Origin: Dehalococcoidia bacterium
GTDB taxonomy: Bacteria; Chloroflexota; Dehalococcoidia; Lucifugimonadales; Lucifugimonadaceae
DNA: 64,000 bases
NCBI GenBank assembly: GCA_002710135.1
Contig: PAOY01000035.1
Coordinates: forward strand, 448-64,447
Reading direction: 5' to 3'
In this document: positions 20,909-57,901 of the stretch, piece after piece
Layout of the letters: each line of letters begins with the position of its first letter
Numbering within the stretch: position 1 is the stretch's first letter
Translations under genes and position numbers: made by a program
The notes under the pieces: model-generated
The model's database searches: none
What the model was told of the DNA's origin: nothing
What the model saw: the letters and a program-made list of their open reading frames with translations, nothing else

Positions 20909-21241
20909 ATGTCAGCATATAAAATTTTGTACTGGAAAGAAATTCCTACACAACTTAAATATAAAGATAATGATGGAAATGAAGGATCATTCCCTCTGAG
21001 TCTCTTTTTTCAGACAGCAATAGATGCTGTTGCAATGCATGATGGATCTATAGAAAGTGGAGCTTATTTAGATGCTTGGGATTGGGGTCCAGAAATACAG
21101 ACTACTCTCGCTCCAGAAGAAATTATAAAACAATTTGATGATAATATTCCCAAGTCATTTATTAACAAAATAAAATCTTTAGAAGACGAAGGGAATAGAT
21201 CAGGTTTGCCTGGATCAATAGACTCATGGTTCAAAATTTAA
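20909..21241 (+). CDS. small conserved protein, resembles the 'virulence factor' family (PF13769, from memory)
   Basis: 110 aa. The N-terminus KILYWKEIPTQLKY...FQTAIDAVAM resembles the YWRDIPAQV...AIDRAAM pattern I recall for this family. First gene of the methyltransferase operon; overlaps the next gene by 16 nt. Confidence 0.45.
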   Translation: MSAYKILYWKEIPTQLKYKDNDGNEGSFPLSLFFQTAIDAVAMHDGSIESGAYLDAWDWGPEIQTTLAPEEIIKQFDDNIPKSFINKIKSLEDEGNRSGLPGSIDSWFKI

Positions 21242-22149: not shown

Positions 22150-22780
22150 TGTAAAAATCAAATTTGGAAAATGTCTTGAACTTGTATCCATGGATCCTAA
22201 TTTTCATAACATTAGTGTAGGACTGTTTATCAAAAAAGATATCTTAACTGTATGGTCTTACAGTAAAAAAGAAGGAGTAGAGTCTAGATTAAATCAAATA
22301 AGAGACAAAATGGTTGAATTCGGAGGATTAAATCACTTAGATGAAGACTTTAAAATGACTGTTCCTAAAGGCGCTCTTATCGAAAGACCATTGAAATTTT
22401 TGTTTAGTCAATGTGTGGAAATGTCACCCGAAAAAAAATCTGACAAAGGTATTATTACTGCCAAAGACAATAAAACTAAACTGACCTTTAAAGTTAGTGG
22501 GTCTCAACAACAAGATAAATATATATATACTGTATCCGCTGAGGGTGAACATGAAAAACCAGGTCTTAGAATACGTGCTGTTGTTGGAGGTTTCATAAAA
22601 TATGGAGAATGCATTAGAAATGATGTAGATTCCTTTCATTTCCCAGATAACAATGCACATGAAGAATACGTAAGAGTATTACTTCCTTATGCAAGAAATG
22701 TAAGTGCTGTTGAACAGATGTTAGAAGCATCTGATCAAGCTGGACAAATGACTACTCAAAGCTTAGGGTTTTCACAATAA
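22136..22780 (+). CDS. hypothetical protein embedded in the corrinoid methyltransferase operon
   Basis: 214 aa. AAGGAG Shine-Dalgarno 7 nt upstream of the ATG at 22136. 14-nt overlap with the preceding gene and 10-nt gap to the next. No recognisable motif. Confidence 0.6.
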   Translation: MKVSDVKIKFGKCLELVSMDPNFHNISVGLFIKKDILTVWSYSKKEGVESRLNQIRDKMVEFGGLNHLDEDFKMTVPKGALIERPLKFLFSQCVEMSPEKKSDKGIITAKDNKTKLTFKVSGSQQQDKYIYTVSAEGEHEKPGLRIRAVVGGFIKYGECIRNDVDSFHFPDNNAHEEYVRVLLPYARNVSAVEQMLEASDQAGQMTTQSLGFSQ

Positions 22781-22790
22781 AGGGGAAAAA

Positions 22791-23822
22791 ATGATAAAAC
22801 AAATGACAAAAAAAGAAAGAGTTTTAGCAGCCCTAAATAGATTAGAAGTTGATAGACCTCCGGTTGCGAACCCAACTTCTGTTGCTACTGTAGAAATGAT
22901 GGATTTAGTAGATGCTCCATTTCCAGAAGCATGTAGATCGGCAGAATTAAATGCAAGGCTTGCAGCGACAGAAATTACTGAATTCGATTTTGATGCAATT
23001 GCTCCATATTTTTCAATTATTCAAGAATCTAGTGCAATTGGATGTGAAATGCAGTGGGAGCAAAAAGATAACTGGCCTACTGTTAGAATGAGTAATCCTA
23101 TTTGGAAAACATCAAGTGATATAAAAGTTCCATCAGATTTCTTAAATCATCCTGATGTTAAGGTTATAACTGATTCTATTAGAATCTTGAAAAAGGAGTT
23201 TGGAGATGATGTCCCAATTATTGGAAAAACAATGGGGCCATGGACTTTAGCTTACCATGTTTTTGGTGTTGAGACATTCCTATTGGGATCAGTAGATAAT
23301 CCTGATGAAACTATTAAGTCTCTGGAAAAACTTCAAGAATTTACATACTTATTTGGAGAGGCTCAAGTTGATGCTGGCGCAGATGTTCTAACTATACCAG
23401 ACCATGCCACAGGAGATTTAGTATCAGGTCAATACTATCAAAAATTTTTACAGGATATTCATACTGAAATGGCACAAAGATTTACAGTCCCTCTAATACT
23501 TCATATTTGCGGTAGAACAGTAGATAGAATGCCTTATATTGCTGAAACTGGCATGCATGCATTTCATTTTGATTCCAAGAATTCACCTCAAGAAGCAATG
23601 GATGCAGTAAATAATAAAATTGCTCTTGTAGGAAATATTAATAATCCAGAAACTTTATACTCAAAGGAAGCAGACGATGTTAAGAAAGAAGTTTTTGAGT
23701 GCTTAAATGCTGGAGTCCAGCTTATTGCTCCAGAATGTGCTATTCCATTAAAAACAAAAGCTGAAAATCTTGTAGCAATAAATGAAGGTATTACTGACTG
23801 GCTAGCGGAAACAAATTCGTAG
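22791..23822 (+). CDS. URO-D-family (MtaA/MtbA/CmuA-type) corrinoid methyltransferase, Zn-dependent
   Basis: 343 aa. N-terminus MTKKERVLAALNRLEVDRPPVANP is typical of MtaA-like proteins. The H-x-C...C Zn signature is present (LILHICGR and IAPECAIP). AGGGG Shine-Dalgarno motif upstream. Confidence 0.75.
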   Translation: MIKQMTKKERVLAALNRLEVDRPPVANPTSVATVEMMDLVDAPFPEACRSAELNARLAATEITEFDFDAIAPYFSIIQESSAIGCEMQWEQKDNWPTVRMSNPIWKTSSDIKVPSDFLNHPDVKVITDSIRILKKEFGDDVPIIGKTMGPWTLAYHVFGVETFLLGSVDNPDETIKSLEKLQEFTYLFGEAQVDAGADVLTIPDHATGDLVSGQYYQKFLQDIHTEMAQRFTVPLILHICGRTVDRMPYIAETGMHAFHFDSKNSPQEAMDAVNNKIALVGNINNPETLYSKEADDVKKEVFECLNAGVQLIAPECAIPLKTKAENLVAINEGITDWLAETNS

Positions 23823-23874
23823 ATTTGATAAAATAAAAATATAATTAACATATTCATTAAAAATAGGACTATTT

Positions 23875-24618
23875 ATGTTTGATCATGAAGGACTTTCAAA
23901 AGAATTTGAGTGGGTAACTAAAGAAAGTGAAAAAAAACATATTGGTGGGGCTATATCAAATACCTCCTACGAAATGCAAGAGATTTCATATGCTCTAATT
24001 ACTGGAGATAATAATGCAGTTGATGAGTTAACAAAAAAAGCTCTAGATAATGGATCTACAGCAAACGAAATACTTGATGATGGATTATTAAATGGTATGG
24101 CAATAGTAGGTGTTAAGTTTAGAGATAATGTTATATTTGTTCCCGAAGTATTGATATCTGCAAGAGCGATGAAAGCTGGTATGACTCATATCGAACCAAT
24201 TTTATCTGAATCTGGAATTGAACCTCAAGGAATAGTTCTTATGGGTACAGTTAAGGGTGATTTACATGATATTGGAAAAAATTTGTGTATCATGATGCTA
24301 AGAGGAGCAGGTTTTACTGTTCATGATTTAGGAGTAGATACATCTCCAGAAGACTTTGTTGATGGTTTTGAAGAACATGAACCTGACGTAATTGGAATGT
24401 CAGCGCTTTTGACAACAACAATGCCTAATATGGGAAGGACTATCCAATATTTTGAAGATATTGGATTAAGAGAAGAAGTTAGAATGATGGTTGGCGGAGC
24501 TCCAGTTACTCAAGAATTTGCTGATGAAATGGGTGCAGATGGATATGGAGAAAGTGCCGTTGATGCAGTTGATAAAGCAAAAGAGCTTGTAGAGCTTCTT
24601 AAAGATTTAAAGAGTTAG
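23875..24618 (+). CDS. corrinoid (cobalamin-binding) methyl-carrier protein, B12 cap plus Rossmann-like B12 domain
   Basis: 247 aa. D-x-H-x-x-G motif is GDLHDIGKN (D129, H131, G134; nt 24259-24276). Also S-x-L (GMSALLTTT) and G-G (MVGGAPV). Confidence 0.9.
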   Translation: MFDHEGLSKEFEWVTKESEKKHIGGAISNTSYEMQEISYALITGDNNAVDELTKKALDNGSTANEILDDGLLNGMAIVGVKFRDNVIFVPEVLISARAMKAGMTHIEPILSESGIEPQGIVLMGTVKGDLHDIGKNLCIMMLRGAGFTVHDLGVDTSPEDFVDGFEEHEPDVIGMSALLTTTMPNMGRTIQYFEDIGLREEVRMMVGGAPVTQEFADEMGADGYGESAVDAVDKAKELVELLKDLKS

Positions 24619-24624
24619 ATTTAT

Positions 24625-24903
24625 ATGACTTATAAAAAGTCTAATTCTAATAATAAAAAGCAATTAAAAAAGAGTTTAGATAACTTATATAATATTTTTC
24701 AGGACATATCATTTCACGCTGATGAAATAAGTAAAACTAGATGCCCATACAAAAATGCTAAAAATTTATGTACTGCAACCTTCTCTTGCAGGAATCAGCA
24801 TTTTACTGCTAAGGGATTAGATTTACCGATTTGTGTTGGTTCACATAAGTTAGATTACAGATTTGCATGGGAAGTGGATAAACCTATTAAAAAAAATGAG
24901 TGA
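24625..24903 (+). CDS. small Cys-containing hypothetical protein
   Basis: 92 aa. Basic N-terminus, with four Cys spaced C-x8-C-x5-C-x13-C (RCPYKNAKNLCTATFSC...PICVG). Its TGA stop overlaps the ATG of the next gene (ATGAGTGA). Confidence 0.5.
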   Translation: MTYKKSNSNNKKQLKKSLDNLYNIFQDISFHADEISKTRCPYKNAKNLCTATFSCRNQHFTAKGLDLPICVGSHKLDYRFAWEVDKPIKKNE

Positions 24904-26527
24904 AAAAAAATTTATTAATGAAAAAAAATCTATAGAATTATCAAAAAATAGATCTCTTTTCGAATATGCAGATCAAATAAAAATGAGAATTCCAACATCA
25001 TGTGGAAGATTTGGAGATTGTCACGAATGTATAGTTGAGGTATCTGAAGGTTATGATATCTTATCCAAGCCAACTGAACACGAAAACTTCCTTAAAGAAC
25101 CATTTAGATTAGCATGTCAGGCTAACACTGTTTCGAAAGACTCAAACTTAAAATTTAGTCCTAGAAAGAGAGATAGAAAAATTTTGACAAATTTTTCTCA
25201 AGAATCTTCATATGATGTAGATCATAATTATATCTATAAAGACAATACTCTAATTTATAAATCTGAAAATAAAGAAACAGTATTATCAAAATCAAAAAAA
25301 ATCTATGGATTAGCTATAGATGTAGGAACTACCACTGTAGCAATTAATTTAGTTGATATAAATATCGGTAAAGTTCTTATGACTTCATCTTTTGAAAACC
25401 CTCAAATTTTTGGAGGTTCAGATGTTATGAACCGTATTTCTTATGACTCATCTAGCTATAAAGGAGAACTGTCAAAAGCAATAATTTCTTCAGTAAATTT
25501 TGAAATTGGTGAATTTGTTAAGAAATTAAAGATAAGAAGAAATGAAATTGTTGAAGTTACTATAGTAGGGAATTCTACAATGAGAGATTTATTTTTCAAT
25601 CTAGATGTAGAACCTATCGGTGTAAAGCCTTATAAATCAATAATCGAAACTGATTATTTAGATTCTAAAATCTCAAGTACAGAATTAATCACTTCAGCAA
25701 AAGATCTAAACTTAAGAATTAATTCTGAAGCATTAATTTATAGTCCTCCATTAATTGCATCTCATATAGGTTCAGATGTTTCTGCTGGTCTCATAGCTAC
25801 AGATTTTTTTGAAAATAATAATACAAAAATGTTAATAGATATTGGTACAAATACTGAAGTTGTTTTGGGAACACCTCAAAAAATGCTTGCGGCGTCATGC
25901 CCTGCAGGGCCTGCCTTTGAAGGAGGAGAGATAACATATGGTATGCCTGGTTATGAGGGTGCTATAGAGAAAGTTGATTTTGAAAGTAATAATTTTACAT
26001 ACCAAACTATTGGGAATTCAAAGCCATTAGGACTTTGTGGATCTGGATTAATTGATTTTCTTTCAATTTTAGTTGAAAACAAAATTATGAATCCTTTGGG
26101 TAAATTCGAACAAGAAAAAGATTATATTTTTATTGATAATGATGAATCTATAAACTTGTCAAGGAGAGATGTATCTAGCCTTGCACAAGAAAAAGCAGCA
26201 AACGTATGCGGACAAGCATTAGTTATTAAAGATTTTGGAACAAATATGGATGATATAGATAATGTTTATCTTGCTGGAGGATTTGCAAACTATATTGATA
26301 TTGAAAATGCTAAAAATATAGGCTTCATACTTAATTTCCCTATAGAAAAAATAAAAAAAATAGGCAATACAGCTTTAGAAGGTGCAACAAAATTATTATT
26401 ATCAAATAAACTTAGAAAAAATCTTGTTGATTATGTGAAAAAAATAGATCACTTAGAACTTGAAACAAAACCAGAGTTTTTCGATTATTTTGTTGAAGGT
26501 TGTCAATTTAAAAAGATTTCAGTATAA
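24896..26527 (+). CDS. RACo/RamA-type ATP-dependent reductive activase of corrinoid proteins (2Fe-2S ferredoxin plus ASKHA/DUF4445 domains)
   Basis: N-terminal plant-type 2Fe-2S pattern SCGRFGDCHEC...LACQA. ASKHA phosphate motifs GLAIDVGTTTVA and IDIGTNTEV, plus LCGSGLID. The track ORF starts at 24863. I prefer the ATG at 24896 (MSEKKF...), which is translationally coupled to the upstream stop. Confidence 0.8.
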   Translation: MSEKKFINEKKSIELSKNRSLFEYADQIKMRIPTSCGRFGDCHECIVEVSEGYDILSKPTEHENFLKEPFRLACQANTVSKDSNLKFSPRKRDRKILTNFSQESSYDVDHNYIYKDNTLIYKSENKETVLSKSKKIYGLAIDVGTTTVAINLVDINIGKVLMTSSFENPQIFGGSDVMNRISYDSSSYKGELSKAIISSVNFEIGEFVKKLKIRRNEIVEVTIVGNSTMRDLFFNLDVEPIGVKPYKSIIETDYLDSKISSTELITSAKDLNLRINSEALIYSPPLIASHIGSDVSAGLIATDFFENNNTKMLIDIGTNTEVVLGTPQKMLAASCPAGPAFEGGEITYGMPGYEGAIEKVDFESNNFTYQTIGNSKPLGLCGSGLIDFLSILVENKIMNPLGKFEQEKDYIFIDNDESINLSRRDVSSLAQEKAANVCGQALVIKDFGTNMDDIDNVYLAGGFANYIDIENAKNIGFILNFPIEKIKKIGNTALEGATKLLLSNKLRKNLVDYVKKIDHLELETKPEFFDYFVEGCQFKKISV

Positions 26528-29945: not shown

Positions 29946-30875
29946 ATGACGATTATTATTTCAGAAGAACAAGTAGGTGAAATACTAACTGTAAAAACTT
30001 CTGTTAGTTTACTTGAAGAAGCTATGAAATCAATTTCTACGGGTATGGGTTTTAATAGCCCTCGTAAAAGACTTCCTACTAGTTACAACGGAGGTAATTT
30101 ACATTTCATGGCTGCATCATGGCCAGAAAAAGGAATTGCTGGTCATAAAAGTTATGTTGTTACTAAAGGAAAAGCAACATTTGTTGTAGTTTTATATTCA
30201 ACAAAAGGAGATGGATTATTAGCAGTTGTTGAGGCTAACTTATTAGGTCAAATAAGAACAGGCGCTGCATCAGGATTGGCTTCAAAATATTTAGCTAATC
30301 CTAATGCAAAAACATTAGCTGTTATAGGTTCTGGTTTTCAAGCTGAAACTCAACTTGAAGCAATTAATTCACAGTTCAATTTAGATGAAGCAAGAATTTA
30401 TTCTAGAAACAAAGAAAATAGAGATTCTTTTGTAGATAAAATGAAAAAAAAATTAGACTTAAATATAATTGGTTGTAATTCTTCAGATGAAGCTACAAAT
30501 AATTCAGATATTATTTCACTTATAACTAATTCAACTACCCCAGTGATCTCAGATGAACAAATCACTCAAGGGATTCATGTAAATGCAGCCGGTGGCAATA
30601 GTTGGTTAAGATCAGAATTATCTACTAATTCTATAAAAAAGTTTGATTTTATTTCTTGTGATGACTTGGATCAAGCTAAAACAGAATCTAAAGAATTGAT
30701 GGAAGCAACTGAAAAAGGTATTACTTCTTGGAATAAAATTCATGAACTTTCTGATGTAATAAATAAAAAAATTATTGGACGAAAAAATAACCAAGATTCC
30801 ACCTTATATCAGTCATTGGGAATAGCAATCCAAGACATAGCAGTAGCTAAATATGTTTACGATCAGATAAAATAA
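29946..30875 (+). CDS. ornithine cyclodeaminase / mu-crystallin family protein
   Basis: 309 aa. Motifs LGQIRTGAASGLASKYLA and the Rossmann motif LAVIGSGFQAETQLEA. Lies 2 nt after the aminotransferase gene. Confidence 0.75.
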   Translation: MTIIISEEQVGEILTVKTSVSLLEEAMKSISTGMGFNSPRKRLPTSYNGGNLHFMAASWPEKGIAGHKSYVVTKGKATFVVVLYSTKGDGLLAVVEANLLGQIRTGAASGLASKYLANPNAKTLAVIGSGFQAETQLEAINSQFNLDEARIYSRNKENRDSFVDKMKKKLDLNIIGCNSSDEATNNSDIISLITNSTTPVISDEQITQGIHVNAAGGNSWLRSELSTNSIKKFDFISCDDLDQAKTESKELMEATEKGITSWNKIHELSDVINKKIIGRKNNQDSTLYQSLGIAIQDIAVAKYVYDQIK

Positions 30876-31473
30876 GATTTTTATATTCTTCCAAGATCTT
30901 TTGGTTTAATGATTTCAAATTTGAATTATTATTTATTAAAGTAAATGGAATATTATCTTTTTCTAAAATTTTGATCATATTTTTTACGTTGTTTTGATTC
31001 TTCAAAATTTTGTTAAAATTATTTTCTGATAAATTTCTATTATTAATCACTCTTTCTTTTGATAATTCTAAATCAGAATTAATTATCCAAATATGATCGA
31101 AAATTTTATGCCAATTTGCTTCAATAATGATAGCGCCTTCAAAAGCAATTAATTCTGATGAATTATTTTTTATTTTATTTAGTATAAAATTCTTAAGACT
31201 TGGCCATACTATGTTTTGTAAATTATTAAGATTCTTTGGGTTATTAAATACTAATTTACCCAGCACATTTGTGTCTATCTGATTACCTTTTGATACTGCA
31301 TTAGGGAAAGAATTAATGACTTTCTGCTTTATTTTTTCTTCTGTTTTGTAGAACTCTTTAGCAACTTTATCTAAATCATAAGTTGAGGTTCTATTGTTAC
31401 TTAAAAAACTTAATACAGAAGATTTTCCACTTCCTATATTTCCAGTTATTCCTAATGATTTCATAATTCCCAA
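30847..31473 (-). CDS. coaE: dephospho-CoA kinase
   Basis: 208 aa. P-loop LGITGNIGSGKSS. Size and layout typical of CoaE. Confidence 0.75.
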   Translation of the reverse strand: MGIMKSLGITGNIGSGKSSVLSFLSNNRTSTYDLDKVAKEFYKTEEKIKQKVINSFPNAVSKGNQIDTNVLGKLVFNNPKNLNNLQNIVWPSLKNFILNKIKNNSSELIAFEGAIIIEANWHKIFDHIWIINSDLELSKERVINNRNLSENNFNKILKNQNNVKNMIKILEKDNIPFTLINNNSNLKSLNQKILEEYKNLILSDRKHI

Positions 31474-36105: not shown

Positions 36106-36966
36106 TTGAAAAGCTTAATTGATTTAGATTTAAAAAACCCAATACTATTATGTAGTTGGCAAGGTTGGCCAGATGCTGCGGAATCAGCAACTAAATCACT
36201 TGAAGAAATTATTTCACAATTAGAAATTATTGATACTTACAAAATATCTTCTGAAGAATATTATATTTATTCAGATAAAAGACCACATGTATCTAATCCT
36301 AAACCTGAAAAAAGGAAAATTGATTGGCCTGAAAATAAATTCTCGTTTGTAAAAACTAATCAAGATAATGATCTTATTTTATTCGAAGGTATAGAGCCTG
36401 ACTTATATTGGAAAAAATATATAAAAGAATTTTTATCAGTTGTGAATTTTTACAATGTAAATCAGGTTATTATGGTTGGATCATTATTAGATTCAGTTCC
36501 TCATACTAGAGAACCTAGAATTAGTGTTACGGCTACAAGATCAGAAAATAATAAGATTTTAGAAGGTATAAAATTTTTACCTCCAACATATGAGGGACCT
36601 GCTGGAATAACTTCTGCTATTGGAGAAAAGCTTGACTCCAAAAAAATATCAGCTATTTCAATTTGGGGGCATACTCCTCATTATTTGCAAGTAACACATA
36701 ATCCTATATTATCTGCTGCAATCATGAGAGAAATAGATAAAATGCTAAACCTTAATCTAAATTTTGATAAAATTTCAAAAAAATCTGAAGAATTCAGATC
36801 TTCATTAAATTTAGCACTTGAAGATCACAAAGAAATAACAAAATATGTTGAAAGACTTGAAGAATCATATGACACAGAAGAAATGTCTAAAATTGATCCT
36901 GAACCAAAGCTAATTATAAAAGATCTTGAAAATTTCCTAAAAGAATCTAGAGAAAATCAAAATTGA
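36106..36966 (+). CDS. PAC2 (proteasome assembly chaperone 2-like) family protein
   Basis: 286 aa. TTG start with TGAGGT 5 nt upstream. LLCSWQGWPDAAESAT matches the FEGWNDAGDAA motif I recall for bacterial PAC2 proteins. Confidence 0.6.
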   Translation: MKSLIDLDLKNPILLCSWQGWPDAAESATKSLEEIISQLEIIDTYKISSEEYYIYSDKRPHVSNPKPEKRKIDWPENKFSFVKTNQDNDLILFEGIEPDLYWKKYIKEFLSVVNFYNVNQVIMVGSLLDSVPHTREPRISVTATRSENNKILEGIKFLPPTYEGPAGITSAIGEKLDSKKISAISIWGHTPHYLQVTHNPILSAAIMREIDKMLNLNLNFDKISKKSEEFRSSLNLALEDHKEITKYVERLEESYDTEEMSKIDPEPKLIIKDLENFLKESRENQN

Positions 36967-41569: not shown

Positions 41570-42781
41570 ATGTTAAAAGAAAATATTGATTTAGTGATAA
41601 TAGGTGGAGGTATTATTGGACTTGCTACCGCAAATGAAATACTCAGAACAAAAAAGAATATAAATATTGTTGTATTAGAAAAAAGCTCATCTGTAGCCTC
41701 CCAACAATCAGGTCATAATTCTGGTGTTATTCATTCTGGAATATATTACAAACCAGGTTCTTTTAAAGCGCAATTTTGTGTTGAAGGAAGAAAAACCATG
41801 ACAGAGTTTTGTGAAAAAAATGAGATACCTGTTTGGACATGTGGAAAATTAATCGTAGCCACTAAAGAATCTGATTTAGATAAAATTGATAATCTCTATG
41901 AAAGAGGTACAGCCAATAAAGTAGAAGGGCTAAGAGTAGTTTCTCAGGATGAAATGAAAGAAATAGAACCTCATGTTAGCGCGCTGAAGGCACTGCATGC
42001 TCCTGGAACAGGAATTGTTGATTACATAAAAGTTACTGAAGTTTATGCAGATCAATTTAGGCACAATGGAGGAGAAGTTTTTTTAGACACTGAAGTTATT
42101 GGAGTTGAAAAATCTAATGGTAAGCTAATTATTAAAACAAATAAGGGTGACATCGAAACAAATAAAGTAATTAACTGTGCTGGTCTACACTCAGATAGAA
42201 TCGCTAAAATGTTTGGTATGCAAACTGATCTAAAAATAATTCCTTTCAGAGGGGAATATTACACATTGAAAAAATCAAAAGAATATCTTGTGAAAGGTCT
42301 AATTTATCCTGTTCCTAATCCTGAACTCCCATTTTTAGGTGTTCATTTTACACAAACTATGAAGGGATTTGTTGAAGCTGGCCCAAATGCTGTACTTGCT
42401 ACTAAACGAGAGGGTTACAGAAAAAGAGATATATCCTTACGTGACACATTAGAAACATTTACATACAAAGGTTTTTGGAATCTTCTAAAAAATGATTGGA
42501 AAACTGGAATTTGGGAAATAAATCGTTCCCTCAGAAAATCCGTTTTTGTCAAAAGCCTTCGTGAATTGATACCAGAAGTAAATAGTTCTGATTTAGATGT
42601 AGGTGGATCAGGAGTAAGAGCTCAAGCTGTAGCACCTGATGGATCATTGATTGATGATTTCAAAATAGAAGGATCAGAAAATGCTATCCATGTATTAAAT
42701 GCACCCTCCCCAGGAGCTACATCTTCATTAGTTATAGGAAAATATATTAGTAATCTAGCAGTTAAGGAACTAGGGATTTAA
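41570..42781 (+). CDS. lhgO: FAD-dependent L-2-hydroxyglutarate oxidase/dehydrogenase (LhgO-like)
   Basis: 403 aa. DVIIGGG-type dinucleotide fold LVIIGGGIIGLATA, then GHNSGVIHSGIYY and VLNAPSPGATSS. Confidence 0.7.
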   Translation: MLKENIDLVIIGGGIIGLATANEILRTKKNINIVVLEKSSSVASQQSGHNSGVIHSGIYYKPGSFKAQFCVEGRKTMTEFCEKNEIPVWTCGKLIVATKESDLDKIDNLYERGTANKVEGLRVVSQDEMKEIEPHVSALKALHAPGTGIVDYIKVTEVYADQFRHNGGEVFLDTEVIGVEKSNGKLIIKTNKGDIETNKVINCAGLHSDRIAKMFGMQTDLKIIPFRGEYYTLKKSKEYLVKGLIYPVPNPELPFLGVHFTQTMKGFVEAGPNAVLATKREGYRKRDISLRDTLETFTYKGFWNLLKNDWKTGIWEINRSLRKSVFVKSLRELIPEVNSSDLDVGGSGVRAQAVAPDGSLIDDFKIEGSENAIHVLNAPSPGATSSLVIGKYISNLAVKELGI

Positions 42782-42943
42782 TTATTCTACAAAAAATGAA
42801 TCTACCAAAAATACTAATGGTACTGCCAAAATAAAGAATAATATTAGTCCGAATATTCCATTTACACTTGCTCCTACAATACCTGAGAAAAGTATTGCAA
42901 TTACTAAGGCTGGATATGATAATTTATCGTTTTTAAGATTCAT
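42782..42943 (-). CDS. possible small membrane protein (53 aa), below the ORF-track size cut-off
   Basis: My translation: MNLKNDKLSYPALVIAILFSGIVGASVNGIFGLILFFILAVPLVFLVDSFFVE. Two hydrophobic segments. Begins 11 nt after the tRNA-Sec 3' end, and its stop abuts the lhgO stop. It could be a chance ORF. Confidence 0.3.
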   Translation of the reverse strand: MNLKNDKLSYPALVIAILFSGIVGASVNGIFGLILFFILAVPLVFLVDSFFVE

Positions 42944-42954
42944 AATAATTTCCT

Positions 42955-43047
42955 TGGCGGGAGAGAAAGGGAATCGAACCCTCCTTGATAAATAATACCA
43001 ATCATAGTTTTGAAGACTAGAAAATTCACCAGAATATACTCACTCCC
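42955..43047 (-). tRNA. selC: selenocysteine tRNA (anticodon UCA), 93 nt with encoded CCA
   Basis: Hand-folded minus-strand sequence: GGGAGTGA GT ATATTC TGGT GAATTT TCTAGT CTTCAAA ACTATG A TTGGTA TTATT TATCAA G GAGGG TTCGATT CCCTT TCTCTCCC G CCA.
- Acceptor stem: 8 bp with one U-U mismatch.
- T stem: 5 bp with a TTCGATT loop, giving the bacterial 8/5 form.
- D stem: 6 bp (one mismatch) with a 4-nt loop.
- Anticodon stem: 6 bp, with loop CU-UCA-AA.
- Variable arm: 6 bp.
- Discriminator: G. Confidence 0.85.
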
Positions 43048-43054
43048 AAATTTT

Positions 43055-43378
43055 TTATACTACAGAATTAAGTTTTTCTTCGAAATGTTGTTTACCAACA
43101 GCTCCAACAATTTGATCAACAGGTTTACCATCCTTAAATATTACATTCATAGGGATAGATCTAACAAAAAATTTAACTGAAAGATTAGGATTACTATCAA
43201 CATCAACCTTAGCAAAAAGAACTTTTCCATCGTATTCTTCTGCTAGCTGGTCTATTGTGGGAGCAATCATTTTACAAGGTCCACACCAATCAGCCCAAAA
43301 ATCTACCATTACTGGTATTTCTGAATTTTCTACTAATTGTTCAAAATCTGCTTCAGTTACAGTTATAGGCTTAGACAT
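43055..43378 (-). CDS. trxA: thioredoxin
   Basis: 107 aa. Active site WADWCGPCK and the typical C-terminal GAVGK... region. Confidence 0.95.
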   Translation of the reverse strand: MSKPITVTEADFEQLVENSEIPVMVDFWADWCGPCKMIAPTIDQLAEEYDGKVLFAKVDVDSNPNLSVKFFVRSIPMNVIFKDGKPVDQIVGAVGKQHFEEKLNSVV

Positions 43379-43387
43379 ATTAACCTC

Positions 43388-45943
43388 TCATTTTATAATT
43401 TTTATTTTTTTACATTCAAGCTGAGGCACAATAGAAGAAAAATCAGGATTATTACTAGATTCTAGATCTGTAACCATTCTCCCAAAATAATCAGTTGAAG
43501 TTATCATTCCTTCAATTTCACCATCAGTTATAATCTCAGAAGAAATTATGGTATTTCCATTCTCATCTTCCAAAGTTATTTTTGTTGAATCTTTTAAATT
43601 GTACGCTGTTGCATCATTAGGATGCAATCTTAATTTCATAGGTGTTGTAATTTTGTTCATATCTGATTCAACCTCAACATTTATCTCTTCTGGTCTATTT
43701 AGTATCCTTCCAGGAGAATAATAAAGTGATTTTGATTCATATTTATCTATTTCAGTGGAAGAAAATTTCAAATTCTTTAGTAGCTTATTTTTTCTAACAT
43801 TTTCGCTATCATCAGATATTTTAGATATGTACGAATTCTTGGCATTTTCTATGTCTAATTTAGTATCACTATAAATTTTTTCAGAGATTTCTAAGATAGA
43901 TAAAAGATTATCATTTACTGGATTTACCATTTTAGGTGCTTTTTTAATCTTTCCTGCTAGATTGATTATAGTAGAATTTTGTTCAGCATAAGTTTTGGTA
44001 GGAATAACGTAATCTGCAATTTCAAATATTTCATTTTTCAAATGATTTGAGTAGACTAAAACATCTAGGTTTTCTGAAATTTTATCTAATCCCTCATCAA
44101 AAATAACATTTGGATTAATTCCATCACCAAATATAATCAAAGCCTTGATAGATTTATCTAAAATTTTCTTAGAAATTTCTTTTGTGTTGGAGAATTCTTG
44201 TTTATTAATCTGAAAAATTTGATAAAAAGATGATGATCCGATTCCATTAAAAGTAGGATATAAACCCTTCCCCTCTCCTTCTAAGCTATCTGTTATTACT
44301 GCTAAGTTATAAATTGAATCTATATAATCAGATGTTTCTGATTCGCTAATTGTGTCTTGTCCAAATGTAAAAGAAGTTTTACTTGATTTAGAAATCAATT
44401 CAGCTGCTTCATAGAGCTGTTGTTCAGGAACTTTTGTTAGGGATGAAATTTTAACAGGATCAAAATTCCACATAAACTTCTTGAAACTATCTATTTGATC
44501 TGAATCAAGATCTTTATATTCTAAATTTTGATCAAAAATTATTTTACTTATAGTATTTATCACTAAACCTTCTGTTCCAGGAACTGGTTTTAACCAAAGT
44601 TTTGCATACCTAGTAAGATCAATCTCTCGAGGATCTATAACAATTAAATCTGATTGCTCTTTTGATGCTTTTTTAATAGGTAGTGAAATCAAGTTATTAT
44701 CTTCTGTAATATTTGAAGATATAACAACATTACAGTTTGATTTTTCAAGATTCCATACATTTGAAGAGGAAGATAAATAACCAAGCCTTTCTGACAATGA
44801 TTTATAATATGGCTTATTATTCAGATATGCGCTAGCTACATACTTTGTATTTACTTTTTTTGCTAAATTTAGCACTCCTATATTATCTTCAACTGATGCC
44901 CTAGGTGAAGTAATAATAGCAATTTCATTTGATTCATAATTCGAAAGCTTAGTGTTTATTTCTGAAAATGCTAATTCATTGTCAACTGATTTATGTTTAT
45001 ATACCTCTTTTACATATGATTTTTTTATTCTTGATGTTGAGTTTGGATAGTCATATCCAAATTTACCTTTATAGCATAATTGACCTCTAGTTGACTCTGA
45101 TGACAAATCTCCTTTGAACCTAACAAGTTTTTCAGATTTATTAACTTCAACAAGAGCATCACATCCTCCAGCACAGTTAAAGCAAGTTGCACTAAACTCT
45201 TTATCAGATTTTTCCCACTTATAATTTCTTTCAACTAATGCACCAGTTGGGCAAACATCTATACATGCTCCACAAAACTCACAACCTGATTCAAGAAGTG
45301 ATGTACCATTAGATGTTCCAACTAAAGACACTCCGGACCTAGAAACTAAAGTAAGTGCTGAGTCAATTCTAATTTCATCACAAACTCTGACACATCTTGC
45401 ACAGACTATACATAAGTTATAGTCTCTATCATAAAAAGGGTCATCAACATGAATAGGTAGATCTCGTCTGTTATAGTTCAATGGAATTGTCATATCTAGT
45501 TGAACAAATCTAGCAGTATCTTTAAGCTCACATCGTTCATTTTTGGGACAAATTGTACATCTATCAGTTACGGCAACATGTCTTTGACAAATATCTTGAG
45601 GGCCACACAACTCTATACGATGACAAGTCAAGCACCCGTGAGGATGTTCACTCATTAGTAATTCAACTACACCTTTTCTAAGGTCATTAACAGAATCATT
45701 ATCACTTTCAACTTTCATCGAATCACCAGCAGGTGTAGTACAAGAAGCAACTGTCATTTTTCTTCCATTCGGCATTTCTACTTCAACTAGACATGCTCTG
45801 CATGCACCATAAGGTTTCATGCTCGGATAGTAACATAAGTAAGGAATATAAATATCGTTATCCATGGCAACTTGAAGTATAGTTTGACCAGATTGAATAT
45901 CTAATTCTTTACCATCTATATTTATTTTTTGCACATCAGCCAC
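43388..45943 (-). CDS. NuoG / formate-dehydrogenase-alpha-like Fe-S subunit with a molybdopterin-oxidoreductase-like domain lacking a Cys/Sec active-site ligand
   Basis: 851 aa.
- N-terminal 2Fe-2S cluster: CYYPSMKPYGACRAC...C.
- His-ligated cluster motif: HPHGCLTCHRIELCGPQ.
- Two ferredoxin-type 4Fe-4S motifs: CIVCARCVRVC and CEFCGACIDVCP.
- MopB-type cluster: CFNCAGGCD...LCYKG.
- C-terminal beta-barrel-like region: LRLHPNDATAYNLKDSTKITL.
- Where FDHs carry ...AR-x-(C/U)-H..., the by-eye alignment gives VASAYLNNK. Confidence 0.75.
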   Translation of the reverse strand: MADVQKINIDGKELDIQSGQTILQVAMDNDIYIPYLCYYPSMKPYGACRACLVEVEMPNGRKMTVASCTTPAGDSMKVESDNDSVNDLRKGVVELLMSEHPHGCLTCHRIELCGPQDICQRHVAVTDRCTICPKNERCELKDTARFVQLDMTIPLNYNRRDLPIHVDDPFYDRDYNLCIVCARCVRVCDEIRIDSALTLVSRSGVSLVGTSNGTSLLESGCEFCGACIDVCPTGALVERNYKWEKSDKEFSATCFNCAGGCDALVEVNKSEKLVRFKGDLSSESTRGQLCYKGKFGYDYPNSTSRIKKSYVKEVYKHKSVDNELAFSEINTKLSNYESNEIAIITSPRASVEDNIGVLNLAKKVNTKYVASAYLNNKPYYKSLSERLGYLSSSSNVWNLEKSNCNVVISSNITEDNNLISLPIKKASKEQSDLIVIDPREIDLTRYAKLWLKPVPGTEGLVINTISKIIFDQNLEYKDLDSDQIDSFKKFMWNFDPVKISSLTKVPEQQLYEAAELISKSSKTSFTFGQDTISESETSDYIDSIYNLAVITDSLEGEGKGLYPTFNGIGSSSFYQIFQINKQEFSNTKEISKKILDKSIKALIIFGDGINPNVIFDEGLDKISENLDVLVYSNHLKNEIFEIADYVIPTKTYAEQNSTIINLAGKIKKAPKMVNPVNDNLLSILEISEKIYSDTKLDIENAKNSYISKISDDSENVRKNKLLKNLKFSSTEIDKYESKSLYYSPGRILNRPEEINVEVESDMNKITTPMKLRLHPNDATAYNLKDSTKITLEDENGNTIISSEIITDGEIEGMITSTDYFGRMVTDLESSNNPDFSSIVPQLECKKIKIIK

Positions 45944-45947
45944 TTTA

Positions 45948-47651
45948 TTACTCCGCAGAATTTGGTCTTGTTCTAGTTGGTGTAAGCATTTTTTCTAACG
46001 GTTCTACCTTGTTATTTATAGAATCTATTATTTCAGATTCAAAGTATTTCAATGAAGAGGATATTGGATTGTAACCTAATTGTCCATGTCCACAAAGTGA
46101 TCCTATTTTCATACTTTTACCGATTCTATCAAGTAGTTCTAAATCTTTAGAATTACTTTTTGAATCAGCTAGTCTTTGCAAAACATCATACATATGGGTA
46201 TTTCCAAGTCTACATGGAAAACATTTTCCACATGATTCAAATTGATTAAATGCAACAAGATTTCTAATTAAGTCGACTACGGATACAGAATCATTACAAA
46301 CAATTATTCCTCCAGAACCTAGAATAGCACCAGATTGAGCCATTTCATCAAAATCTATCTTAGTTGCAAATGCTTCTTTTCCAAGTACACCTCCAAGTGG
46401 TCCTCCTGTTTGAAGCATTTTTATTGGTTTATTAGAATTAGAACCTCCTCCTACTTCTTCCAATACTTCCTCGATTGTCATTCCCATTGGAATTTCATAC
46501 ATACCGGGTCTGCTTATATGTCCAGACAAGCAAACTATTGCTGTTCCACTAGATTTTTCAGTTCCTGTAGATTTGAACCATTCAGAACCATTCTTTATTA
46601 TTTGTGGAACATATGAAATTGTTTTTACATTATTAATATTAGTTGGTTTTTTCCATAATCCAGATGCGGCAGGAAAAGGAGGTTTGAAACGAGGAGGAGA
46701 TCTTTTCCCTTCAATTGCTTCCATCAAAGCAGTTTCTTCACCTGCTACATAGGAATCTCCTGTTAGAGAAACTTCCATATCAAAAGAAAAATTTGAACCT
46801 AATATATTTTCTCCAAGTAATCCTTTATCGTAAGCTTCAGAAATAGCTCTTTCGATAGCATTAATTGGAATATCATGACCTTGTCTTATAAAGACATATG
46901 ATTTATTTGAGTTAGTTGCATATCCATTTAATATGAGTCCTTCAACAAGTGTATGAGGATCAGTTTCTAAAATACCTTTATCATTATATGCACCAGGGTC
47001 ACCTTCTTCACAGTTACAAAGTACATATTTTACAGGTGCTTTATTTGGAGCTAAGAAGCTCCATTTAACACCAGTTGGAAATGCTGCGCCACCTCTACCT
47101 CTTAAGCCAGAGTTTTTAACTTCCTCAACAACATCTTCGGGAGTCATCTCAAAAAGAGCTTTGTTAAGAGCTGAATATCCTCCTGTAGAAATATATTGTA
47201 ATATATCTCCAGGTGTTACTTCTCCAAAATTCCTAGTTGCTATACGAAGTTGTTTAGAAAATTGAGGTAATTCGTTTAACTTTGGTATAGACTCATCTAA
47301 ATTTCTTGAAGACTCATAAGCAAATGAATTCTCCTTTAAAATTTCATTTGTTGTTGAATAATGTTCAAATATCTTTTCTGTTAGTTTTTCGTCTACATTT
47401 GCATAAAATATTTGATCATTAGTAGGTAATACAACTACGACCAAAGGTTCCAAATACATCAATCCCATAGAACCAACTTCTATAACATTAATATTGTCAG
47501 ATTTTTTTGAACTAAGTAGTGAAAATATTTCATCAGCGCCCACAGCTTGACCTGAGGTTCCTGTTTGAACTTTAATTACAGTCTTATTCTTATATAAGTC
47601 ATCTAAATATTTATTTGCTAATTCTTCTAATTTTTTATATTGTTCAGTCAT
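45948..47651 (-). CDS. NuoF-like NAD(H)-binding FMN/4Fe-4S flavoprotein subunit with an N-terminal extension
   Basis: 567 aa. Motifs GLRGRGGAAFPTGVKW, CNCEEGDPGA and the N3 cluster motif CGKCFPCRLG...LCGHG. The first ~130 aa form an extra domain with no Cys. Confidence 0.85.
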   Translation of the reverse strand: MTEQYKKLEELANKYLDDLYKNKTVIKVQTGTSGQAVGADEIFSLLSSKKSDNINVIEVGSMGLMYLEPLVVVVLPTNDQIFYANVDEKLTEKIFEHYSTTNEILKENSFAYESSRNLDESIPKLNELPQFSKQLRIATRNFGEVTPGDILQYISTGGYSALNKALFEMTPEDVVEEVKNSGLRGRGGAAFPTGVKWSFLAPNKAPVKYVLCNCEEGDPGAYNDKGILETDPHTLVEGLILNGYATNSNKSYVFIRQGHDIPINAIERAISEAYDKGLLGENILGSNFSFDMEVSLTGDSYVAGEETALMEAIEGKRSPPRFKPPFPAASGLWKKPTNINNVKTISYVPQIIKNGSEWFKSTGTEKSSGTAIVCLSGHISRPGMYEIPMGMTIEEVLEEVGGGSNSNKPIKMLQTGGPLGGVLGKEAFATKIDFDEMAQSGAILGSGGIIVCNDSVSVVDLIRNLVAFNQFESCGKCFPCRLGNTHMYDVLQRLADSKSNSKDLELLDRIGKSMKIGSLCGHGQLGYNPISSSLKYFESEIIDSINNKVEPLEKMLTPTRTRPNSAE

Positions 47652-47653
47652 TT

Positions 47654-48133
47654 CTAATTTTTTAAAGTATTAATAATTTTAGTTACTTTTGTTTCATCAA
47701 GTTTTCCGAACATTTTATGATCAATCGCAAAAACAGGACTTTGAGCGCAGGCGCCCAAGCAGGTTGAGTATCTGAGTGTAACTTTTTTATCTTCAGATTC
47801 TCCTTCTCCCTTTATATCTAATTCATCATGAGCTTGATTTATAAGTTTCTGGGCTCCATTTATATGACAACTAGGCCCCCAGCAAACATCAAGAGTTTTG
47901 TCCCCAGGAGGTGTAAATCTAAAATTGGTGTAAAAGGAAGCAACACTCCAAACATCATTAATTGTTACTTTACAATGTTTAGAAATTTCCTCTATAGCTT
48001 CATCAGGAATATAATGAAGACTATCTTGCACTGCTAAAAGTGAAGATAGTACCGTTACAGTTTTTCTTTTTTGATTAGAAATAGAATCTTTAATTATATT
48101 TCTTAATTTTTCAGAATTATGCTTTTCTGACAA
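47654..48133 (-). CDS. NuoE-like thioredoxin-fold 2Fe-2S subunit
   Basis: 159 aa. TTG start preceded by AGGAGA. Cluster ligands in DVCWGPSCHING and STCLGACAQSP. Confidence 0.8.
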   Translation of the reverse strand: MSEKHNSEKLRNIIKDSISNQKRKTVTVLSSLLAVQDSLHYIPDEAIEEISKHCKVTINDVWSVASFYTNFRFTPPGDKTLDVCWGPSCHINGAQKLINQAHDELDIKGEGESEDKKVTLRYSTCLGACAQSPVFAIDHKMFGKLDETKVTKIINTLKN

Positions 48134-48210
48134 ATTCTCTCCTGAGTTTATAATCTAATTTTATCAATTCAATTTTTAGCTAACAAGATATTATTGTTGC
48201 AAATTGGGTA

Positions 48211-55559: not shown

Positions 55560-56231
55560 TTATAATTTTTTAGAATATATTTCTAATGCTTCTTTAGCAG
55601 CCATCTTTTCTGCATCAATTTTTTTTCTTCCTTTACCAATCGATATTTTTTTGTCATTAATGAATAATTTTATTAAGAACGAACCATTTTCTAACTGTTG
55701 GGATTTATAAACAGGTAATTCTTCTCCAAGTTCTTGAAGTTTTTCTTGGAGTAATGATTTTGAATCGAAATAAGACTTAGAATTATAAATATCACCAATT
55801 TGATCTTTGAATAAATCAACTAAATAATTAGATGTTTCATGAAGACCTATACTGATTGAAATGTATCCTATTACGGATTCAAATAAATTACATAATGTAG
55901 AAATTTTATTTCTTCCATTATTCATTTCTTCGCCCTTGCCCAAGATGATATAACGACCAAGTTGAAGATCTTTAGAGTAATTTGATAATGATTTTTGATT
56001 AACTACTTCAGATCTAATTTTTGATAAATCTCCTTCAGGTAAACTCGGATAATGTTTATATAAATATTCACTTACAACATAACTTATTACAGAATCACCT
56101 AAATATTCTAATCGTTCATTTGATTCTAAATCCTTAATTGTAGAATTTTCATTTAGATAAGAACTATGTGTTAAGGCAACTTTGAAGTTATCAAAGTCTT
56201 CATGTATAAGCTTTTGAATTAATTCAAACAT
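55560..56231 (-). CDS. rnc: ribonuclease III
   Basis: 223 aa. Signature NERLEYLGDSV. C-terminal dsRBD ending GKGRKKIDAEKMAAKEAL. Confidence 0.9.
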   Translation of the reverse strand: MFELIQKLIHEDFDNFKVALTHSSYLNENSTIKDLESNERLEYLGDSVISYVVSEYLYKHYPSLPEGDLSKIRSEVVNQKSLSNYSKDLQLGRYIILGKGEEMNNGRNKISTLCNLFESVIGYISISIGLHETSNYLVDLFKDQIGDIYNSKSYFDSKSLLQEKLQELGEELPVYKSQQLENGSFLIKLFINDKKISIGKGRKKIDAEKMAAKEALEIYSKKL

Positions 56232-56854
56232 TACAATTGATGTTGTTTAGGCCAAGGAGGCTGGGGTTTTTTTAATTCACCAAAATATGTATTATTAGCA
56301 GACAAGATTTTTATTGCATTAAAAAATTCTAAAGAATCATTGTATGGAGGGGTAAAAGTTTTCAAAAAAACAGTATTTTCATCAGAAAATTCTATTGTTG
56401 GAGTTCCGAATATACCTTTTCCTTCAGCTTCTAAATGTGAGGATGCAATAAAATCTAAAGAATTTTTAGAATGTAAGTCTTCATTAAATTTTTCTGAAAA
56501 AATATCTAGTGATTTTGCTAGATTTATAATATATTCTTCACTTCTAACATCTATTCTTTTAACATGCTTGTCCTCAAAAATTGCCCTCATATATAATTGC
56601 CCTGCCTCTTTAGATATATTTCTTGCTGCGATCCCTCCTAAATGAGGCCAAATACCTCTACTTATATATTCAGATAAGTTTTGTTCCCAGGCTAACCAAT
56701 TATCTTCATTTTCAGAGTTTATTTGTTCTAATAGAAATGGTTGCCATGATATATCTATCTCTGATTTATCTTCAAGATCAAGTAGCCAAAATCCTGCTTG
56801 TCTTACCCATGGACAGGTATAATCAAAAAATACTTTCACTTTCTCAGTAGTCAT
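56231..56854 (-). CDS. DsbA-like thioredoxin-fold protein with a monothiol C-P-W-V motif
   Basis: 207 aa. The N-terminus KVFFDYTCPWVRQA sits where DsbA/HCCA-isomerase-like proteins carry CxxC. GIFGTPT lies near the cis-Pro region. Confidence 0.55.
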   Translation of the reverse strand: MTTEKVKVFFDYTCPWVRQAGFWLLDLEDKSEIDISWQPFLLEQINSENEDNWLAWEQNLSEYISRGIWPHLGGIAARNISKEAGQLYMRAIFEDKHVKRIDVRSEEYIINLAKSLDIFSEKFNEDLHSKNSLDFIASSHLEAEGKGIFGTPTIEFSDENTVFLKTFTPPYNDSLEFFNAIKILSANNTYFGELKKPQPPWPKQHQL

Positions 56855-56896: not shown

Positions 56897-57901
56897 TTGA
56901 ACAGCTCTTTAGACAAAATAAACACATTTATTCAATCAAACAATAATCTTTCTTCTATTATAGATTATTGCAGAGAGTACAAAAGTAAAAATGAAATAAA
57001 AATATATTTGGTGGGAGGCATTATTAGAGACATTATATTAGACTCTAAGTATAGCTTTTTTGATTTAGACTTAATTATTGATGGTAATATAGATCATTTT
57101 GCTAAAAACTTTTCTGAAGATTTGAATTGCAGAATCAATAAAATTCATAATTTTCCTAACTATAAATTATTTTTTAATGATGATCTTGAAATAGATATAG
57201 CTCACGCTAGGTCAGAACAATATAAATCACCTGGTTCATTGCCTGTTTGGAAAAAATCTACAATTAATGATGATTTATTTAGAAGAGATTTCAGCATAAA
57301 TTCAGTTGCAGTAGAAATCCATTCAGATTTTCTGAAAATTATTGATCCCATAAATGGTATAGAGGACATAGAAAATGAAATTATTAAAGTTTTACATAAT
57401 AACTCATTTAGTGATGATCCTACGAGAATATATAGAGCCATAAGGTATAGATCTAGACTTCAATTTGATTTTGATAAAAACACAAAATTATTATTTTATG
57501 ATTCAATTAAAGATTTAAATAATCTATCTATCTTTAGAAAGAATAAGGAAATTTTAAAGTTCTTAGAAGAAGAAAATATTGAAAATTTTCTAAGTATAAA
57601 AGGCAAAGATAGTATTGTTGACTCATTATTTCCTAAAAATTTTTTGAATAAGTTAAGTTTTGTTGATAAGAATTTCTGGAAAAAATCTAATATAAAAGAA
57701 AAAATATTCTTTGCTTTTTTTTCAGTTGAAAATCAAACTAGAAATGATTTTCTTAATTCTATGAATTTTTCTAAAAATGATATGAAGGAAATTTCATTAT
57801 TTTTCGAAATTAAAGAAATTGTAGAAAACAATAATTTACAAAACCCTGAAGATTTGAGTTTAGATAAAGATTTTATTTCTAATTTATATCATTGTTTATA
57901 G
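56897..57901 (+). CDS. class II tRNA nucleotidyltransferase / poly(A) polymerase-family protein (short form)
   Basis: 334 aa, TTG start. Motif A is LVGGIIRDIIL...DLDL, motif B is FRRDFSINSVA, and motif D-like is FSDDPTRIYRAIRY. Confidence 0.7.
   Translation: MNSSLDKINTFIQSNNNLSSIIDYCREYKSKNEIKIYLVGGIIRDIILDSKYSFFDLDLIIDGNIDHFAKNFSEDLNCRINKIHNFPNYKLFFNDDLEIDIAHARSEQYKSPGSLPVWKKSTINDDLFRRDFSINSVAVEIHSDFLKIIDPINGIEDIENEIIKVLHNNSFSDDPTRIYRAIRYRSRLQFDFDKNTKLLFYDSIKDLNNLSIFRKNKEILKFLEEENIENFLSIKGKDSIVDSLFPKNFLNKLSFVDKNFWKKSNIKEKIFFAFFSVENQTRNDFLNSMNFSKNDMKEISLFFEIKEIVENNNLQNPEDLSLDKDFISNLYHCL

Follow-up and report, generated by a model that had tools for sequence, protein, structure and literature searches.

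Bacterial selC genes, as represented by the Rfam family RF01852 and, for example, by Escherichia coli, encode a selenocysteine tRNA (tRNA-Sec) with a UCA anticodon, an acceptor stem of 8 base pairs (bp) combined with a 5-bp T stem, a 6-bp D stem with a loop of 4 nucleotides (nt), a long variable arm, a G at position 73, and an encoded CCA end. The selC gene that we investigated is located at 42955..43047 on the minus strand of a 64-kilobase (kb) stretch of contig PAOY01000035.1 (the window; 64,000 nt in total) from a Dehalococcoidia bacterium, and it shares all of these properties. Unlike the typical bacterial gene, however, it encodes a tRNA of only 38% G+C (GC) with U.U and C.U mismatches in its stems, and it is not a stand-alone gene but begins 7 nt after one coding gene and ends 11 nt before the next.

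tRNA genes located within protein-coding operons are known from E. coli (thrU-tyrU-glyT-thrT-tufB) and from mitochondria, where they gave rise to the "tRNA punctuation" model. The locus in the window resembles both in that coding genes on the same strand flank the tRNA gene with almost no spacer, and excision of the tRNA would define the ends of messenger RNAs. It differs in that a single tRNA-Sec is placed between two unrelated small genes, and in that this arrangement appears to be secondary, having come about through loss of a spacer.

Orthologous genes with the same fold, located at the same position after a set of nuoEFG-like genes and trxA, are found in the cultured Candidatus (Ca.) Lucifugimonas marina JH545 and in other members of the SAR202 group with a GC content of about 50% (locus L033 and similar loci). 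In contrast to the window, these genomes contain a terminator-like hairpin and about 70 nt with a conserved promoter-like block between trxA and selC. Our analysis makes it highly probable that the window carries a functional selC for the tRNA-Sec (UCA) of a streamlined SAR202 bacterium, a gene that would have been inherited beside trxA and is likely expressed on one transcript with it.

Identification and structure of the tRNA gene

The only tRNA that ARAGORN reports in the window is a tRNA-SeC at 42955..43047 on the minus strand, with the anticodon tca at tRNA position 35; these coordinates are identical to those given in a preliminary description made from the sequence. The covariance model of Rfam agrees and accepts the gene. 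The match to RF01852 (42959..43047, minus strand) covers the full model (1-91 of 91) with 68.4 bits (E = 7.6e-12), which is 21 bits above the gathering score of 47. RF01852 is the best match within the tRNA clan CL00001 and the sole Rfam family that exceeds its threshold in the window. This confirms 42955..43047 as a genuine, canonical tRNA-Sec gene of the bacterial type.

The 5' strand of the acceptor (43047-43040) and its 3' strand (42966-42959) form a helix of eight positions (1-8 with 82-89), seven of which are standard pairs and one of which is a U6.U mismatch; a 2-nt linker follows. The D arm (43037-43022) has a stem of six positions (AUAUUC/GAAUUU), five paired and one a U.U mismatch, and the 4-nt loop UGGU. 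Four standard pairs, a C.U mismatch, and a U.G pair make up the stem of the anticodon arm (43021-43003), whose 7-nt loop CUUCAAA (CU-UCA-AA) presents the anticodon UCA at 43013-43011. The variable arm (43001-42985) has 6 bp (UUGGUA/UAUCAA) and a 5-nt loop, and all five positions of the T stem (GAGGG/CCCUU; T arm at 42983-42967) are paired. The 3' end consists of the discriminator G at 42958 (G73, an identity element for seryl-tRNA synthetase, SerRS) and the CCA encoded at 42957-42955. The tRNA keeps every defining feature of its family: the 8/5 branch of 13 bp, the 6-bp D stem with its 4-nt loop, the long variable arm, G73, and UCA. The anatomy proposed earlier holds for the 8/5 branch, the D stem and loop, the anticodon loop, the 6-bp variable arm, the discriminator, and the CCA end, but the U.U mismatches make the stems slightly less perfect than had been described.

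The window has a GC content of about 29% and is extremely compact. Relatives of its nuoG-like protein with 67-87% identity occur only in metagenome-assembled genomes (MAGs) of marine Chloroflexota/Dehalococcoidia/SAR202; one of these MAGs, PBHC01 (SP3041; 87%), carries a tRNA identical to that of the window. The relatives in the remaining SAR202, among them the cultured Ca. Lucifugimonas marina JH545, are more distant (about 43% identity). Over 20 kb the window is 99.84% identical to the Tara Oceans contig ERR594349 k127_1721300. An exact-protein look-up gave no exact match for four of the six window proteins tried. The base composition, the compactness, the relatives of the nuoG-like protein, and the Tara Oceans match together indicate that the host is a streamlined, AT-rich SAR202-type bacterium of the surface (epipelagic) ocean.

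Conservation across SAR202

Of 35 related loci, 26, including that of the cultured Ca. Lucifugimonas marina, have a tRNA-Sec shortly after the nuoEFG-like genes, and the loci without one are mostly on contigs that end too early. In all 24 loci that we checked, the gene that immediately precedes the tRNA encodes a thioredoxin with a WCGPC active site.

We aligned 19 distinct SAR202 tRNA-Sec sequences and counted pairs on the 8/5 cloverleaf. Standard pairs occupy 89.5% of the cells, as compared to 43-64% when the 3' partners are slid by one to three columns, and 18 of the 34 base pairs have changed on both sides; the observed values were not reached in any of 500 shuffles. The acceptor helix is 89.5% paired, with two pairs changed on both sides. 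The T stem is paired throughout, and its first pair is kept as G.U in 17 of the 19 sequences. Covariation is found for five of the six pairs in the D stem and for eight of the nine in the variable arm, whereas the center of the anticodon loop (UUCAA) and the GCCA at the 3' end are invariant in all 19. Even the U6.U mismatch of the window is repaired in two members of its AT-rich clade, as A6-U in L015 and as U6-G in L036. The strong covariation for the 8/5 cloverleaf among these sequences argues that selC is under selection; as judged from the alignment, the pattern is one of purifying selection on the tRNA, which neither a pseudogene nor a hairpin arising by chance would show.

A separate AT-rich SAR202 lineage (L039, PBKW01000022.1, and L040, PAOU01000005.1; approximately 12680-13400) has kept the nuoEFG-like genes and trxA. 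No tRNA-Sec follows trxA at these two loci, and a membrane transporter-like open reading frame (ORF) is found there instead. The gene could have been lost from this site or relocated.

Loss of the spacer between trxA and selC

In SAR202 genomes with a GC content of about 44-62%, trxA and selC are separated by 99-132 nt (356 nt in one genome). In most of these loci the trxA stop codon is followed by a hairpin, whose arms show compensatory changes, and then by a run of T, which we read as a putative intrinsic terminator. Between this hairpin and the tRNA there is a conserved block in which a GTAnTCT motif is invariant. A simple terminator scanner missed the hairpin of Lucifugimonas, and we relied instead on the alignment with its compensatory changes.

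The spacer changed during STREAMLINING and is 7-15 nt long in the AT-rich clade to which the window belongs. In the window, the 7 nt AAAATTT (43048..43054, minus strand) separate the TAA stop codon of trxA, which ends at 43055, from tRNA position 1 at 43047, as had been reported, and neither a terminator between trxA and the tRNA nor a promoter of its own is visible for selC. The variable arm has shrunk too: it has 6 bp in a tRNA of 93 nt in the window, whereas the tRNAs of other SAR202 have an arm of 9 bp and a total length of 98 nt. A second AT-rich lineage (L021, CAZBHC010000034.1, 12968-13071; 29.6% GC) has a tRNA-Sec of the long 98-nt GC type that begins 5 nt after trxA. The short spacer next to a GC-type tRNA indicates that the spacer shrank in this lineage as well. 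In L021 a convergent lhgO directly follows the tRNA-Sec, and the small gene orf53, which follows selC in the window, is absent.

These comparisons suggest that the order of nuoEFG-like genes, trxA, and selC predates the radiation of SAR202 and that the position of selC beside trxA was inherited. In the ancestral state, trxA would have ended in a terminator-like hairpin, with selC alone behind its own conserved upstream block. Genome reduction would then have shrunk the spacer of about 100 nt to 7 nt, leaving selC between trxA and orf53. The preliminary description considered the presence of selC in a streamlined genome as striking; it is less so, because the linkage to trxA was inherited from SAR202 ancestors with large genomes. 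What is noteworthy is the deep conservation of this linkage, and the locus provides a clean example of how streamlining can remove a terminator and a promoter so that a tRNA gene ends up embedded between coding genes.

Mode of expression

On the downstream side, the 11-nt spacer AGGAAATTATT (42944..42954, minus strand), with an AGGA ribosome-binding site directly after the CCA, leads from the tRNA to the ATG of orf53 (42782..42943, minus strand). The latter encodes a hydrophobic protein of 53 amino acids (MNLKNDKLSYP...VDSFFVE), which is conserved at the protein level in 10 of 10 relatives from the AT-rich clade, at distances of 8-22 nt after selC (11 nt in the window); no Pfam or NCBIfam family matches it. 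orf53 ends back to back with the convergent lhgO, which marks the end of the presumed minus-strand transcription unit with zero intergenic bases. At the other end of this unit, the 77-nt gap upstream of nuoE contains a promoter-like TTGTTA-17-TAAAAT with a TG (48186..48158), although promoter-like matches occur at chance level (32 found versus 28.5 expected in shuffled sequence). Between this site and the end of orf53, the scanner reports no terminator-like site on the minus strand except for one inside nuoE.

Co-transcription of selC with trxA, as suggested in the preliminary description, is plausible given the spacers of 5-15 nt in the AT-rich lineages, the absence of a terminator, and the conserved orf53, which starts only 11 nt after the CCA and has a ribosome-binding site of its own. 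A single transcript comprising the nuoEFG-like genes, trxA, selC, and orf53 would be the most likely mode of expression. From this transcript RNase P would cut the 5' end of the tRNA, another endonuclease together with exonuclease trimming would produce the encoded CCA end, and the same processing would separate the messages of trxA and orf53. In bacteria an encoded CCA usually blocks RNase Z, and the 3' end is made by another endonuclease and exonucleases; processing of the RNase Z type, which had been proposed for this 3' end, is doubtful because the CCA is encoded here. Cleavage of the 5' end by RNase P is the part of that proposal that can be regarded as safe.

A functional selC could also have a promoter of its own, either inside the 3' portion of trxA or within the AT-rich spacer, and would then not belong to the nuoEFG-like-trxA message. 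We regard this as possible but unlikely. The ancestral state seen in the SAR202 genomes of about 50% GC, where selC is independent and follows a terminator-like hairpin and a conserved block, speaks for such a promoter, as do a TATAAA hexamer that shares bases with the stop codon of trxA and stops 6 nt short of tRNA position 1, and a promoter-like TTGAAT-18-TAAAAT at 43419..43390, just upstream of trxA. However, the scan reports no pair of -35 and -10 elements inside trxA on the minus strand, its matches are at chance level overall, and the AT-rich spacers of the relatives do not share a -10 box at a conserved position. Furthermore, no terminator splits trxA from selC, and read-through transcripts are therefore expected in any case.

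If selC is co-transcribed with trxA, one may speculate, with considerable doubt, that in the streamlined SAR202 clade the tRNA-Sec has acquired an additional role as a punctuation mark in the RNA: its excision would leave the trxA message with its 3' end and the orf53 message with a very short 5' end that begins with the Shine-Dalgarno sequence, and the supply of tRNA-Sec would be coupled to transcription of a redox operon (NuoEFG-like and thioredoxin). Should this be true, the linkage between trxA and selC, maintained throughout the SAR202 radiation, would represent co-regulation of selenocysteine decoding with the demand for thiol-redox functions, and not chance synteny.

Selenocysteine machinery

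Following the established bacterial pathway, SerRS would charge the tRNA-Sec with serine, SelA would convert the serine to selenocysteine using selenophosphate provided by SelD, and SelB would take the tRNA to UGA codons accompanied by a selenocysteine insertion sequence (SECIS) hairpin in selenoprotein genes elsewhere in the genome; other UGA codons would remain stop codons. A Pfam search, which covered 50 of the 64 called genes and, through stored matches, the genes at 33.5-42.8 kb, so that few short ORFs fall outside, detected no SelA, SelB-wing, or SelD-type protein in the window. There are also no sel genes in the approximately 9 kb beyond the right end of the window (L046) or in the flanks of the Lucifugimonas locus.

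We searched for SelA with a metagenome scan that used an AT-biased back-translation of its pyridoxal phosphate motif, followed by a profile search. Among the first candidates from the motif scan, L142 and L119 belong to Marinimicrobia. Another group belongs to Dehalococcoidia/SAR202 by its NCBI names, which establishes SelA in SAR202. The loci inspected from it, however, come from other low-GC Dehalococcoidia and not from the clade of the window (L133, L168, L174, L177, and L178): these contigs have 32-35% GC and tetranucleotide correlations (r) with the window of 0.72-0.89, and their CoaE is only 28-38% identical to that of the window.

The profile search yielded a very AT-biased representative on contigs with 28-29% GC and a tetranucleotide correlation of 0.94 with the window. 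Its relatives include a protein that NCBI lists as 'L-seryl-tRNA(Sec) selenium transferase [Chloroflexi bacterium TMED70]', and the TMED70 MAG (NHDX01) also carries locus L019 with the orthologous nuoEFG-like genes, trxA, selC, and orf53. These SelA sequences form three subgroups that are 57-64% identical to one another and whose NCBI names ('Chloroflexota bacterium'; 'TMED70'; 'Dehalococcoidia/Dehalococcoidales bacterium') parallel the three subclades into which the selC locus falls. Near-identical SelA genes of the 'Chloroflexota bacterium' subgroup occur on many Tara surface contigs (31% GC, r = 0.91) from the project that also provided the near-identical contig of the window. SelA is present in the clade, and we infer its presence in the window's own species. 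The expectation that the selenocysteine machinery is encoded elsewhere in the genome is borne out in part: the window and the adjoining 9 kb lack domains of SelA, SelB, and SelD, and SelA is found in the clade, but SelB, SelD, and a selenoprotein were not located.

Two further observations concern SelA loci. In L142 (MDTE01174836.1, 3590-6855), a marine contig with 25.7% GC and r = 0.907, the gene for SelA, which the NCBI names of its relatives place in Candidatus Marinimicrobia, overlaps the start of a 628-amino acid ORF that is probably selB. The Dehalococcoidia SelA loci L168, L174, L178, L181, and L189 share a conserved block of genes that encode a VWA protein, in some cases a NUDIX protein, a CbbQ-type AAA protein, and in some cases CoaE, followed on the opposite strand by SelA and an MgsA-like AAA protein and then by an aminotransferase of the Beta_elim_lyase family. 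In the clade with 28-31% GC this block lacks CoaE; the window encodes its CoaE elsewhere, at 30847-31473.

Several observations weigh against a functional selC that is decoded as described and transcribed with trxA. The tRNA is eroded, with 38% GC as compared to about 63% counted in the Ca. Lucifugimonas marina ortholog, and its stems are mismatched, with U.U in both the acceptor and the D stem and C.U in the anticodon stem. Its cloverleaf has a folding energy of -17.6 kcal/mol, whereas the predicted minimum-energy fold (-25.6 kcal/mol) is not a cloverleaf: it is 8 kcal/mol more stable, and in it the variable arm pairs with part of the anticodon arm and with the D arm's 3' half. For the Lucifugimonas ortholog, the cloverleaf is the minimum-energy fold (-45.8 kcal/mol). 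Single-sequence folding does not yield the cloverleaf for selC, and we relied on the comparative evidence instead. No SelB, SelD, or selenoprotein gene turned up in the window, in the adjoining 9 kb, or in about 630 kb from related SAR202 loci, although no search was aimed at SelB or SelD. The link to SelA is indirect: the same-MAG evidence concerns TMED70, and the nuoG-like proteins of TMED70 and the window share only 72% identity, and the closer SelA subgroup is linked through matching names and composition. Tetranucleotide similarity is only weakly lineage-specific, as illustrated by the Marinimicrobia contig with r = 0.907. With regard to expression, a promoter inside trxA is possible, and consensus scans are uninformative at 29% GC.

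One could conclude from the mismatches in three stems, the low GC content, and the unfavorable fold that the tRNA-Sec gene is a relic, decaying as its lineage gives up the use of selenocysteine, and that it persists through linkage to its neighbors or because too little time has passed for its deletion. The absence of selenoproteins and of selenocysteine machinery from the window, and the sister AT-rich lineage represented by L039 and L040, which has trxA but no selC at this site, would be in line with such a decay. We nevertheless consider a relic to be very improbable. Throughout the AT-rich clade, with nuoG-like proteins down to 67% identity, the length of the tRNA and all functional positions are kept, and the changes are compensatory, as in the repaired U6.U position and the covarying pairs of the variable arm. 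In so compact a genome, 93 useless bases would be expected to be deleted, and SelA has been retained in the clade, including in the TMED70 MAG. The selC of the window, read as a functional gene, shows the extent of AT drift that a tRNA-Sec can tolerate while its defining architecture is preserved.

UGA codons and the search for selenoproteins

TGA ends 13 of the 64 called genes in the window, and extensions beyond these codons are short and not conserved; the TGA codons at 22147, 24901, and 36964, which had been cited as stops, are real gene ends. With TGA in normal use as a stop codon, there has been no reassignment of UGA.

We inspected upstream and downstream extensions through TGA within the window and found no convincing candidate for a selenoprotein. 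The TGA of the nuoG-like gene (43390-43388, minus strand) shares the reading frame of trxA and precedes its ATG by only three codons, so that it might be taken for a selenocysteine site joining the two genes. However, relatives have TAA or TAG at this position and the frame varies among them, so the in-frame TGA is a coincidence; a GAGG ribosome-binding site is located in between. Similarly, aroE and aroC are connected by an in-frame TGA at 12094 but are two ordinary separate genes. The DsbA-like protein encoded at 56231-56854 (minus strand) has a single cysteine in its CPWV motif and no selenocysteine. A scan for exchanges between UGA and cysteine codons in 36 SAR202 sequences (630 kb, a small part of a genome's worth for such a search) returned only antisense or out-of-frame shadows cast by adjacent genes, or near-identical intergenic DNA. 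The SelA loci and the right flank of the window contained no selenoprotein candidate either.

tRNA-Sec-like species with altered structures (8/4 branches) are known from Actinobacteria and Chloroflexi (PMC5389517), but it is extremely improbable that the gene in the window encodes a tRNA of this kind with another job, be it a UGA suppressor, a "selC*" or allo-tRNA that inserts cysteine or serine, or a marker of UGA reassignment, since its 8/5 branch, its 6-bp D stem with 4-nt loop, G73, and UCA are canonical, it scores well above the Rfam threshold, and TGA acts as an ordinary terminator, exchanged for TAA or TAG in relatives where it separates the nuoG-like gene from trxA.

Selenocysteine in SAR202

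SAR202 bacteria are abundant in the surface ocean, and even the most AT-rich and streamlined among them keep tRNA-Sec and at least SelA. They are therefore likely users of selenium. In the literature that we searched, no paper meaningfully links SAR202 with selenocysteine. At the level of the lineage, the statement is new but unsurprising, as public MAG annotations already name SelA. The finding of selC leaves the knowledge of the mechanism of selenocysteine decoding unchanged.

Genomic context and other genes in the window

The gene upstream of selC, trxA (43055..43378, minus strand), encodes a thioredoxin of 107 amino acids (Pfam Thioredoxin, E = 2.6e-31; TIGR01068, 119.7 bits versus a cut-off of 96.8), whose WCGPC active site contains cysteine and not selenocysteine. 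Three genes identified through Pfam are tightly packed upstream of trxA (43388..48133, minus strand): nuoE-like (47654-48133), nuoF-like (45948-47651), and nuoG-like (43388-45943). Their best NCBIfam matches are NuoE/F/G or the gamma subunit of formate dehydrogenase, all below the curated cut-offs. For the E-like subunit the top-scoring NCBIfam family is formate dehydrogenase gamma, and the nuoG-like subunit has a molybdopterin domain without an obvious cysteine or selenocysteine ligand. No nuoA-D or nuoH-N genes accompany the trio within the 64 kb. Convergent to the minus-strand unit, lhgO (41570..42781, plus strand) encodes an L-2-hydroxyglutarate oxidase (NCBIfam NF008726, 546 bits versus a cut-off of 299), and its synteny is shared with L021 and the Lucifugimonas locus.

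At some distance from selC, a corrinoid-dependent methyltransferase cluster (21226-26527, plus strand) comprises a homocysteine S-methyltransferase-like gene, a 214-amino acid ORF, a URO-D/MtaA-like methyltransferase, a B12-binding corrinoid protein, a 92-amino acid ORF, and a RACo-type reductive activase. This cluster suggests demethylation of a methylated compound in streamlined surface SAR202. The window further contains a PAC2-family (proteasome assembly chaperone-like) gene at 36106-36966 (plus strand) and, adjoining the gene for RNase III, a gene of the PolyA_pol-head family (CCA-adding enzyme or poly(A) polymerase) at 56897-57901 (plus strand).

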